Positions 6,850 to 47,695 of a stretch of 64,000 nt of DNA are shown here, piece by piece. A program made the position numbers and the translations under genes. Position 1 is the stretch's first letter. Each line of letters opens with the position of its first letter. Origin of the DNA: Octopus vulgaris (Eukaryota); the NCBI GenBank assembly GCA_951406725.2, contig OX597818.1, positions 51,956,001 to 52,020,000 of the forward strand, in the 5' to 3' direction. The notes under the pieces were generated by a model. The model saw only the letters and a program-made list of their open reading frames with translations. It did no database searches and was not told where the DNA came from.

Positions 6850-7195
6850 AAACTGATCGATAACTATGGGATTCTAAATACGCATAATTACTATAACCGT
6901 AATGTAACATCGTCTGTTTTTCCGTCCTTGTTTTCGTATACATTCGATGCTTTTTTCCAAGAAATCTAATACTCTTAGCTTAGTTTTTCCTTGGGACTGG
7001 CCAGATTGAAGCAATCTCAAGATTAATCAGCTGAAATTGCGAGGATGATCCGACTCTTAAACTGAGGATAAAAGGCTTCAAATGACCCGTCCTTGTTTTT
7101 TTGTATCGTCTATCTGGATATTTTGTTGTCCCTTTTTGTATCACCTAGTTGTCCGGATGTTTTGCGTTCTTGTCCCATTTTGTATTTTTTTATAC
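6850..7195 (+). mobile_element. Repeat family carrying a permuted hammerhead-like motif (putative PLE terminus)
   Basis: Reverse-complement homologue at 8543-8756, partial at 56010-56125, diverged relative at 42700-42950. Confidence 0.55.
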
Positions 7196-8549: not shown

Positions 8550-8755
8550 CAAAATGGGACAAGAACGCAAAACATCCGGACAGTTAGGTGATACAAAAAG
8601 GGACAACAAAACATCCAGAAAGACGATACAAAGAAAGCAAGGCCGGGTCATTCGAAGTTTTCTTTCCTCAGTCAAGCACCAGATTATCCTCGCAATTTCG
8701 GCTGATTATTTTTGATGATTGCTCCAACATGGTCATCCCCAAGGAAAAACTAAGC

Positions 8756-8756
<1 letters not shown>
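8543..8756 (-). mobile_element. Second copy of the permuted-hammerhead repeat family
   Basis: Reverse complement of about 6975-7190; inserted in (TG)n/(TA)n. Confidence 0.6.
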
Positions 8757-26089: not shown

Positions 26090-26700
26090 TTACCCCTTGT
26101 GGGTAGTAAAGAAATAGGTATTTCGTCTGCCGCTACGTTCTGAGTTCAGATTCCGCCGAGGTCGACTTTGCCTTTCATCCTTTCGGGGTCGATAAATTAA
26201 GTACCAGTTACGCACTGTGGTCGATGTAATTGACTTAATCCATTTGTCTGTCCTTTTTTGTCCCATCTGTGTGTAGCCCCTTGTGGGCAGTAAAGAAATA
26301 AGAAACGTTAGCACGCTGGGTGAAATGGTTAGTGGTATTTCGTCTGCTGCTACGTTCTGAGTTCAAATTCCGCCGAGGTCGACTTTGCCTTTCATTCTTT
26401 CGAGGTCGATTAAATAAGTATCAGTTACGCACTTGGGTCTATATAATCGACTTAATCCGTTTGTCTGTCCTTGTTTTCCCCCTCTGTGTGTAGCCCCTTG
26501 TGGGCAGTAAAGAAAATGGTATTTCGTCTGCCGCTACGTTCTGAGTTCAAATTTCGCCGAGGTCGATTTTTGCCTTTCATCCTTTCGGGGTTGATTAAAT
26601 AAGTACCAGTTACACACTGGGTTCGATATAATCGACTTAATCTGTTTGTCTTTCCTTGTTTGTCCACTCTGTGTGTAGTCCCTTGTGGGCAGTAAATAAA
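26090..26700 (+). mobile_element. Tandem array of SINE family B (3+ units)
   Basis: Repeated GGTATTTCGTCTGC..GTAAAGAAATA units. Confidence 0.85.
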
Positions 26701-31935: not shown

Positions 31936-32540
31936 GAGGCGGCGAGCTAGCAGAATCGTTAGCACACCGGGCGAAATGCGTAGCCGTATTTCGTCTGCCG
32001 CTACGTTCTGAGTTCAAATTCCGCCAAGGTCGACTTTGCCTTTCATCCTTTCGGGGTCGATAAATTAAGTACCAGTTACGCACTGGAGTCGATGCAATCG
32101 ACTTAATCCGTTTGTCTGTCCTTGTTTGTCCTCTCTGTGTTTAGCCCCATGTGGGTAGTAAAGAAATAGAAATAGGTATTTCGTCTACCGCTACGTTCTG
32201 AGTTCAAATTCCGCCGAGGTCGACTTTGCCTTTCATCCTTTCGGGGTCGATAAATCAAGCACCAGTTACGCACTGGGATCGATATAATCGACTTACTCCC
32301 TTTTTCTGTCCTTGTTTGTCCCCTCTGAGGACAGTAAAGAAATAAGAATCGTTGGTACGCCGGGCGAAATACTTAGCAGTACTTCGTCTGCCGCTATGTT
32401 CTGAGTTCAAATTCCGCCGAGGTCGACTTTGCCTTTAAATCTTTCGGGGTCGATTAGATAAGTACCAGTTATACACTGAGGTCGATGCAATCGACTTAAC
32501 CCCCTCCCCCAAGTTTACCTTTGTGGCAAAAATCATTATT
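31936..32540 (+). mobile_element. Tandem trimer of SINE family B
   Basis: Three head-to-tail units. Confidence 0.85.
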
Positions 32541-42511: not shown

Positions 42512-42558
<47 letters not shown>

Positions 42559-42608
42559 TATATATATGTGTATATATATATATATGTATATATGTATATA
42601 TATATATG

Positions 42609-42699
<91 letters not shown>

Positions 42700-42703
<4 letters not shown>

Positions 42704-42950
42704 AGGTTTGAACAGACAGGACTTAACAAAGAGGGAAAGTTAGACAAAGCAGAGCAAACGGGAAACTAGACGAAAACTTAATATAGACAAAGAACGCAAT
42801 ACAAGGAATATTTGCAGTTGAGTTTTCCTCCTCAGTCAATGAACCAAAATATCATAGTGGTTTCGCGCCATTATCACTGAGACCACTCAATCCTGGAGAC
42901 ACCAGTGCTGTTATTAAGCTACCGGGGAAAAGGTAGCGAATGTATACTGT
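42700..42950 (-). mobile_element. Diverged relative of the 6850-7195 family with permuted hammerhead-like motif
   Basis: Shared CTGAGGA, GAAA and CGAATGTATAC landmarks; inserted in (TA)n. Confidence 0.5.
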
Positions 42951-43249
42951 GACAGAAACAAACAAACACACACACACACACACATACACATGGCATAATG
43001 TTTTTTTTAAGTTTCCATTTATATTTTAGAGTGGCATTAGGTTTCTTTAAAATAGTTATTGATGAATAATAACATTTGGTTGGATGCGTGTTACTTTTAT
43101 CATGACCACACTAATATTGACATTAACTCTCATGCCTCTTTATTAACCTGGATCTTTTATCCGCTGCATATATACAACATTTGAATAATGGAACGGCATT
43201 CAAGGGGTATCGAATGGAATAAGTACAAGTTAAGTTTCTACTGCATAAT

Positions 43250-47135: not shown

Positions 47136-47695
47136 AAGGAGAATAACAACAAATACCCACTCTGAAAAGAAAAAAAAAAAAAACAAAAACAAAAAAAGAA
47201 CAGACGTTTCGCCTTTAAAGTTCTCTCATCATCAGACATCTTTTTTTTTTTTAAGTCTCCTGTTGTTATTGTTCTCTTCAGCCATTTTGAAAAAAAAAAA
47301 ACAGAAGGAAAGAAGAAAGAAAGAAAAAAAGAATCGCGTATAAAATAAAAGGAAAAAATATAGAAAAAACATTTACTTTTATCTTTTGTCTGTGTTTTCC
47401 AGAATTTTTTTATTTTAATGTTGATTTTAGTTCTCTTTACATCCAATATTTTGTCAGGAAAAGAAAGAGAAAGAAATTTTTTTTATACTTAAATTTTTTT
47501 TAATATGTATGTATTATGTATGTATGTGCGTGTATGTGTGTGTATGTAAGTATATATGCAGACACATATATGCATATTATACATATAAATTTATATATAT
47601 ATATATATATATACAAACATACAGAGAAATATATACGCATGTATATCTATATCTATCTACCAATATATATATATCTATTTATCTATCAATCAATA

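Follow-up and report, generated by a model that had tools for sequence, protein, structure and literature searches.

An apparently undescribed hammerhead ribozyme topology with a split core, predicted at the 3' end of Naiad-like repeats in Octopus vulgaris

The 3' end of a repeat without open reading frame (ORF) in the genome of Octopus vulgaris carries a hammerhead-like motif, located on the minus strand at 42896-42820 of the analyzed window (the whole stretch of 64,000 nucleotides from contig OX597818.1, to whose first letter all positions refer), with a predicted cut 3' of C42881. Very probably, the sequence is an inserted copy of a repeat that lacks an ORF and was likely mobilised by Naiad-type elements, and its 3' region is predicted to fold into an apparently undescribed hammerhead topology that would cut tandem or read-through transcripts once per unit. 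The motif behaves as a hammerhead in all sequence tests and is predicted to be self-cleaving; its split-core topology appears to be undescribed and to fall outside the block rule formulated by Eckert 2023 (PMC10085705). The host repeat, referred to as family A, is represented in the window by a 5'-truncated 3' end (42701..42966, minus strand) of an ORF-less Penelope/Naiad-like unit of ~950-960 nt. This copy ends at a (TA)n tract (42515-42701), with (TG)n at its 5' break, and 7.7% of its positions differ from the majority sequence of the family (family mean 8.0%); it is best described as one of many decaying insertions of this repeat.

In the proposed order of elements, the 5' part would consist of P4a, the P5 hairpin, a stem II strand, a strand of helix H, a stem III strand, the UH cut site and a stem I strand; the 3' part would continue with a stem II strand, GAAA, a stem III strand, helix H, a stem I strand, CUGANGA and P4b. 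Reading the minus strand of the window copy in this direction, the 5' strand of P4 (42925..42930, with one mismatch) is followed by the P5 hairpin (42903..42924), which ends directly 5' of G10.1 (42902) in the 5' strand of stem II (42898..42902). The interaction helix H contributes its 5' strand CCAGGAT at 42890..42896. Block S, i.e. stem III strand, GUC triplet and stem I strand, lies at 42874..42886 and includes the predicted cut 3' of C42881; block G, i.e. the 3' strand of stem II, GAAA and stem III strand, lies at 42857..42869 (C11.1 = 42865, G12 = 42864). The 3' strand of H, ATTTTGG (42844..42850), precedes the stem I strand and the CUGAGGA core (42829..42842; C3 = 42835, A9 = 42829), and the 3' strand of P4, GGAAAA (42823..42828), begins directly after A9. 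Core positions carry the customary hammerhead numbering. [quoted passage not shown]

Part of this arrangement had been recognized in the original prediction. The minus-strand sequence quoted there is found at 42896-42820, its GUC triplet, GAAA and CTGAGGA are present, and the cut site is C42881. Stem III pairs as GTGGT/ACCAC, with one more A-T pair possible. Stem I (TCAGTGA/TCATTGA, one G-U) pairs as proposed, but TCAGTGA is limited to the window copy; the majority sequence of family A reads TCAATGA. The stem II partner, P5 and P4 (42930-42898 and 42828-42823) fall outside the motif as it had been delimited.

According to a descriptor that combines the order site-GAAA-CUGANGA with stems I and III of at least 4 bp, 42896-42820 is the only site in the 64-kb window. 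The chance expectation for this descriptor is 0.02 per window-equivalent, and with the upstream strand of stem II added it is matched in 0/100 resamples. A looser scan of the same block order yielded one further weak site in the window. In an Rfam search of 42710-42965 with E up to 10, no hammerhead match was obtained, as expected because of the non-standard block order; for the whole window, microsatellite-driven miRNA matches are found among the best 150 of 352 Rfam matches. Elsewhere in the window, 47206-47235 on the minus strand contains a hammerhead core in canonical order (CUGAUGA, GAAAC, GUC) with a poor stem I, which is likely a decayed minimal type-I hammerhead of another Penelope-like family. 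Head-to-tail copies of an interspersed repeat of 185-217 nt, presumably a SINE, occupy 26117-26700 and 31986-32327.

A genome pattern for the motif gave 549 matches, versus 2 for the reversed control, and led to further repeat families; majority sequences of the ribozyme region were built for eight families (A, B, C, C2, D, E, F and H). For family A, all 40 scored of 253 candidates matched, with 84-90% identity. Its copies show 5' truncation and stop at (TA)n, with a short tail at tandem junctions; same-strand spacings of 951-962 were observed in 4/10 cases and an inverted partner at 5/49 loci. No RT-like match was found in the family A unit (~960 nt). Core and stems I-III are intact in 3/30 family A copies, a set that was seeded with the window copy. 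Family F is young (99% identity) and forms head-to-tail tandem units of 699-719 nt with one motif per unit; core and stems are intact in 16/17 of its copies. Short or truncated matches are excluded from such per-copy counts, which cover 14/30 pattern loci for family C, 29/30 for B, 17/20 for F and 19/20 for H. Families F and H are both very young and ORF-less, with 98-100% identity, and F occurs in arrays of ~708 nt units; the RT copies found in the genome are old and broken, in contrast to the recent spread of these two families. Family E comprises two subfamilies with a compensatory change in stem III (ACAG/CTGT versus ACTG/CAGT).

Two copies of the related family B also lie within the window. 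The first (6903..7182, plus strand) has the same layout and is damaged: with CTTAAA in front of CTGAGGA, it has lost an intact stem I, and T stands in place of C11.1, at odds with the stem I of TCAAG/CTTGA that had been assigned to it at 7011. CTTGA does occur in family B, namely in its majority sequence and in the copy near 8700(-). The second copy (8550..8756, minus strand) is 5'-truncated inside P5 and has a 2-nt insertion near the cleavage site.

The feature that sets the octopus motif apart is a stem II whose 5' strand is supplied from upstream of the cleavage site. Where a single G-C pair had initially been seen, the window copy possesses a helix of 5 bp, formed by GTGTC (42902-42898) and GGCGC (42869-42865) with two G-U pairs; the majority sequence of family A has GCGCC/GGCGC. 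In 8/8 majority sequences, the strand preceding GAAA forms 5-6 Watson-Crick pairs with a partner 20-22 nt upstream of the cut, and the chance of finding such a partner is 0.004-0.009 per family. Five distinct helices are observed overall, i.e. GCGCC/GGCGC (A), GGCTG/CAGCC (B, F, H), GACAC/GTGTC (C, C2), GGACA/TGTCC (D) and GGGCA/TGCCC (E); when strands are swapped between different helices, 1-4 of 5 pairs are left. The idea of an upstream stem II already existed when families E, F and H were assembled, and F and H share the helix of B; hence, E contributes the sole new helix among these three. The 3' end of the published Naiad_Obim has the same layout with another sequence, the bases before GAAA pairing upstream of the cleavage block.

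The hammerhead core, i.e. C3-U4-G5-A6-N7-G8-A9, G12-A13-A14, A15.1-U16.1 and H17, is present in the window copy and in 8/8 majority sequences. Around it, each of stems I, II and III is found, with G10.1-C11.1 closing stem II, whose 5' strand comes from upstream. CUGANGA, GAAA, UH, A15.1-U16.1 and G10.1-C11.1 are fixed in all eight families, while the helices turn over. Position 7 of CUGANGA is A, C, G or T across the families, and family A itself has CTGACGA in its majority sequence; the invariance once attributed to CTGAGGA thus does not hold. We also scored 15 genomic copies, i.e. the copies nearest to the majority sequences and the window copy, from which the structure had itself been derived; the families are related, stem I is misaligned in the three family C rows, and the figures are not to be read as probabilities: 98.7% of stem II cells are paired and 4/5 of its pairs have changed on both sides, G10.1-C11.1 is found in 15/15 copies, stem III is paired at 100%, and the whole structure is paired at 97% versus 19-43% in slid controls. 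Within family A, core positions mutate somewhat less than others (13/296 versus 182/2871, CpG excluded); in this comparison, subfamily differences count among the other positions, and copies were picked for resembling the window copy. The sequence itself shows every core base along with stems I-III and H, with covariation across the families. The selection seen as covariation acted on master elements, and the window copy gives no indication of being maintained. The proposal of a rearranged fold with compensatory changes is upheld between families, but not with the one-pair stem II that had been part of it.

P4 and P5 are predicted helices. Two-strand folding of the region before G10.1 and the region after A9 proposes P4 plus P5 in 7/8 families; in these, P4 begins at A9 or at most 2 nt from it, and P5 ends at G10.1 or at most 2 nt from it. 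The two helices are flush in families A and B, leave a single base unpaired on each side in C2, D and E, and are looser in F and H. For family C, P4/P5 were not recovered by two-strand folding and are visible by eye with a mismatch. Interruptions or loose pairing of P4 in families C, F and H mean that not every family would form a perfect four-way junction. Helix H comprises 4-9 bp in 8/8 families; it follows the stem II strand after 0-3 nt, directly precedes the stem I strand and encloses stem III as well. The extension CCAG..TGG, which had been described as kept, corresponds to this helix and occupies the place of the interaction helix between stems I and II of Eckert.

Six block orders of the hammerhead have been named, of which types SGC and CSG were shown to cleave (Eckert 2023, PMC10085705). 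According to the part of this source available to us, type SGC was found in metatranscriptomes and not in the genomes of known organisms, non-circular permutations were reported from environmental sequence plus one weak bacterial candidate, and block C, consisting of CUGANGA and a stem II strand, was assumed to be unbreakable. With type SGC (HRIMA-1 and its variants; PMC10085705), the octopus motif shares the block order S, G, C, i.e. site, GAAA, CUGANGA, and also the short linker between stems I and II, a helix joining the far ends of these stems, and at least two pseudoknots. In type SGC as described there, however, no more than 1-2 nt separate CUGANGA from the stem II strand that follows, whereas in the octopus motif this strand is placed at the 5' end and P4/P5 lie between A9 and G10.1; because its block C is split, the octopus motif is not a member of type SGC. 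Type CSG, known from two metagenomic sequences that both cleave, has the same circular block order as the octopus motif, which corresponds to a CSG hammerhead with its ends moved into the A9-G10.1 link; CSG, as far as described in PMC10085705, keeps A9-G10.1 contiguous and is without P4/P5. A term search of the supplement of the same paper (PMC10085705) found no split fold, and a literature search outside subscription papers and bioRxiv supplements found no description of the split fold or of hammerheads in Naiads.

Since P4/P5 are placed between A9 and G10.1 and H takes the place of the interaction helix, the CSG/SGC circle would be opened at this point, both ends leaving via P4. P4 would stack on P5, and stem II on the core, with the four-way junction replacing the A9-G10.1 link. 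Such stacking would hold in place G10.1 and A9, which have a role in the metal site of the hammerhead. H would tie stems I and II to each other, as the corresponding helix does in type SGC/CSG, and catalysis would follow ordinary hammerhead chemistry. If transcribed, the window copy would cut after C42881; on the level of the element, cutting read-through or tandem transcripts once per unit would define the element RNA, the same role that is proposed for other Penelope-like elements and retrozymes.

The relationship to other hammerheads is more distant. Canonical types I, II and III possess the circular order CUGANGA, GAAA, site in a pseudoknot-free three-way junction; the order of the octopus motif is reversed, and it is not a member of these types. 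The hammerheads of non-LTR retrozymes and Penelope pLTRs have the canonical order, too. These type-I hammerheads occur in non-autonomous tandem units tied to Penelope-like elements, which resemble the octopus families in this respect (bioRxiv 10.64898/2026.07.22.740005, as far as available to us), whereas the octopus units measure 700-960 nt and carry a non-circular, split ribozyme. The PK hammerhead is likewise a natural variant in which stem II is rewired, a further helix is present and the G8 2'-OH chemistry is kept (Zhan 2024, PMC11300833). Its stem II is, however, replaced by a loop pseudoknot with pistol-like connectivity, and the available part of that paper (PMC11300833) describes neither a reversed block order nor a break between A9 and G10.1. 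Other hammerhead variants with extra helices differ from the octopus motif by their descriptions, to the extent that these are accessible.

Minimum-energy folding of the window copy, with a program unable to form pseudoknots, gives no knotted structure; the result is a competing fold that is no better than those of shuffled sequences (z -1.2). Knots would be avoided if the helices formed between two RNAs or tandem units, with cleavage taking place in dimers and the monomer being inactive or slow. The elements do occur in tandem, a monomer would require two or more pseudoknots and has the competing fold, and other Penelope hammerheads reportedly cleave as dimers. We nevertheless regard dimer cleavage as improbable: dimer-type hammerheads have a palindromic stem III, whereas stem III of the octopus motif has 4-7 bp and is not palindromic, and its stems I and II are joined by short linkers of 2-7 nt, similar to the linker of SGC. 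Moreover, identically knotted RNAs of types SGC and CSG undergo co-transcriptional cleavage in cis (Eckert 2023, PMC10085705).

Very improbable, in our view, is a structure that is conserved but no longer catalytic, serving the Naiad RT/endonuclease as a signal for binding or packaging, with the core bases as leftovers. In line with such a role, many Naiads proliferate without any hammerhead (Craig 2021, PMC8557442, together with the 3' ends read here). The core, however, is fixed in 8/8 families and, by eye, across phyla as the helices turn over; a fixed core with changing helices is the pattern required by catalysis, which disfavors a non-catalytic signal. A type-SGC hammerhead of the ordinary kind, whose stem II is reduced to a vestigial single pair provided by the base after CUGANGA and whose pairings upstream are merely incidental, could draw on the G that follows A9 in family A and might pair with C11.1, and on the existence of minimal Penelope hammerheads with a very short stem II, but is extremely unlikely, given that this base is G, A, T or C across the families, that the canonical downstream position after CUGANGA yields only 1-2 pairs with the strand before GAAA in 8/8 majority sequences, and that the upstream G10.1 is fixed in a helix that covaries.

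A split-core hammerhead acting in cis remains our preferred reading, and its distribution leads to the Naiad group of Penelope-like elements, which have been reported without canonical hammerheads (Craig 2021, PMC8557442). Naiads and family A have in common (TA)n as target, truncation at the 5' end, partial tandems, inverted partners and a tail of 30-40 nt (PMC8557442, in the part available). Naiads, however, encode an ORF with an N-terminal GIY-YIG, CxC and a C-terminal RT (PMC8557442), whereas family A has no ORF. By eye, family C matches the 3' ends of the published Naiad_Obim and Naiad_Ovul, and the C/C2 motif region lies downstream of an RT on the same strand at 13/30 RT loci. For families A, B, D, E, F and H, no RT partner was found in the 30 RT loci or upstream of copies (1.5-kb flanks); because no RT is joined to any of these families, the Naiad link of family A is indirect, and at the 3' end the ribozyme layout is all that is shared. 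A single ORF from the RT loci was searched; it matches Pfam RVT_1 with an E value of 2e-4, below the curated cutoff, and contains motifs that by eye resemble the Naiad alignment of Craig 2021; four short RT fragments gave no Pfam match. Family A was likely mobilised by Naiad-type Penelope-like elements.

In order to place the octopus motif among Naiads, the last ~400 nt of 53/54 published Naiad consensus sequences were read by eye, not computed. The split form was recognized in 11/53 of these 3' ends (Bfor, 3_Chem, Amil, Aacu, Anas, 2_Movir, Plae, EuTe, Obim, Ovul and Esco), with P4/P5 lying outside the sequence read for Plae and EuTe and not resolved for Esco. They represent about 8 independent families from a ctenophore, cnidarians, an acanthocephalan, a crustacean and cephalopods. 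Naiad Amil is the clearest case, with stem II GGCTCC/GGAGCC, P4 GTAACTGT/ACAGTTGC and a flush P5; stem II is imperfect in Naiad_Esco, and stem I has only 2 bp in Naiad_Bfor. The unsplit type CSG with a long interaction helix was seen by eye in 6 nematode Naiads (Naiad-1/2/3_Nbra, Hcon, Hpol and Asuum). The other 36 3' ends are twister-like, HDV-like, unclear or have no motif in the stretch seen. We take the motifs of 4_Chem, 1_Movir, Mgal, Bpla and Mphi to be twister-like and apparently permuted, with related ones in Scon and Mmer; the 3' end of Naiad Parc has what we take to be an HDV-like look. In Naiads Ptep, Smim and 1/2/4_Dst, CUGANGA is part of motifs that are not a clean match to either the split or the CSG layout. 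A further structured motif, CGGGTG ... GCTYAC ... CACC, is shared by Naiads CGi, Sglo, Olur, Tgra, Pmar, 1/2_Skow, 1/2_Pfla and 1/2_Chem; it occupies the ribozyme place of other Naiads and is a candidate for an undescribed self-cleaving RNA. Craig 2021 had flagged 'HHR_core' or 'HHR_half_core' in 5/11 of the split-form and 3/6 of the CSG Naiad families and, in the part of the paper accessible to us, gives no description of a split hammerhead fold in Naiads (PMC8557442). We consider it likely that an active split-core hammerhead outside the six block permutations is spread over Naiads from five or more animal phyla and can interconvert with the nematode CSG form, and that the Naiad 3' UTR represents a slot for split, CSG, twister-like and possibly undescribed ribozymes.

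The octopus repeats appear to break the assumption that CUGANGA is inseparable from stem II, and they apparently place rearranged hammerheads in hundreds to thousands of copies in an animal genome. The young families with 99% identity are ready substrates for cleavage assays and structure work, and a junction that occurs naturally at the base of stem II would offer engineered ribozymes a new site for the insertion of control domains. As an answer to the question why Naiads seemed to be free of hammerheads, we propose that standard descriptors are blind to the reversed order; if this is true, Naiads do not lack ribozymes.
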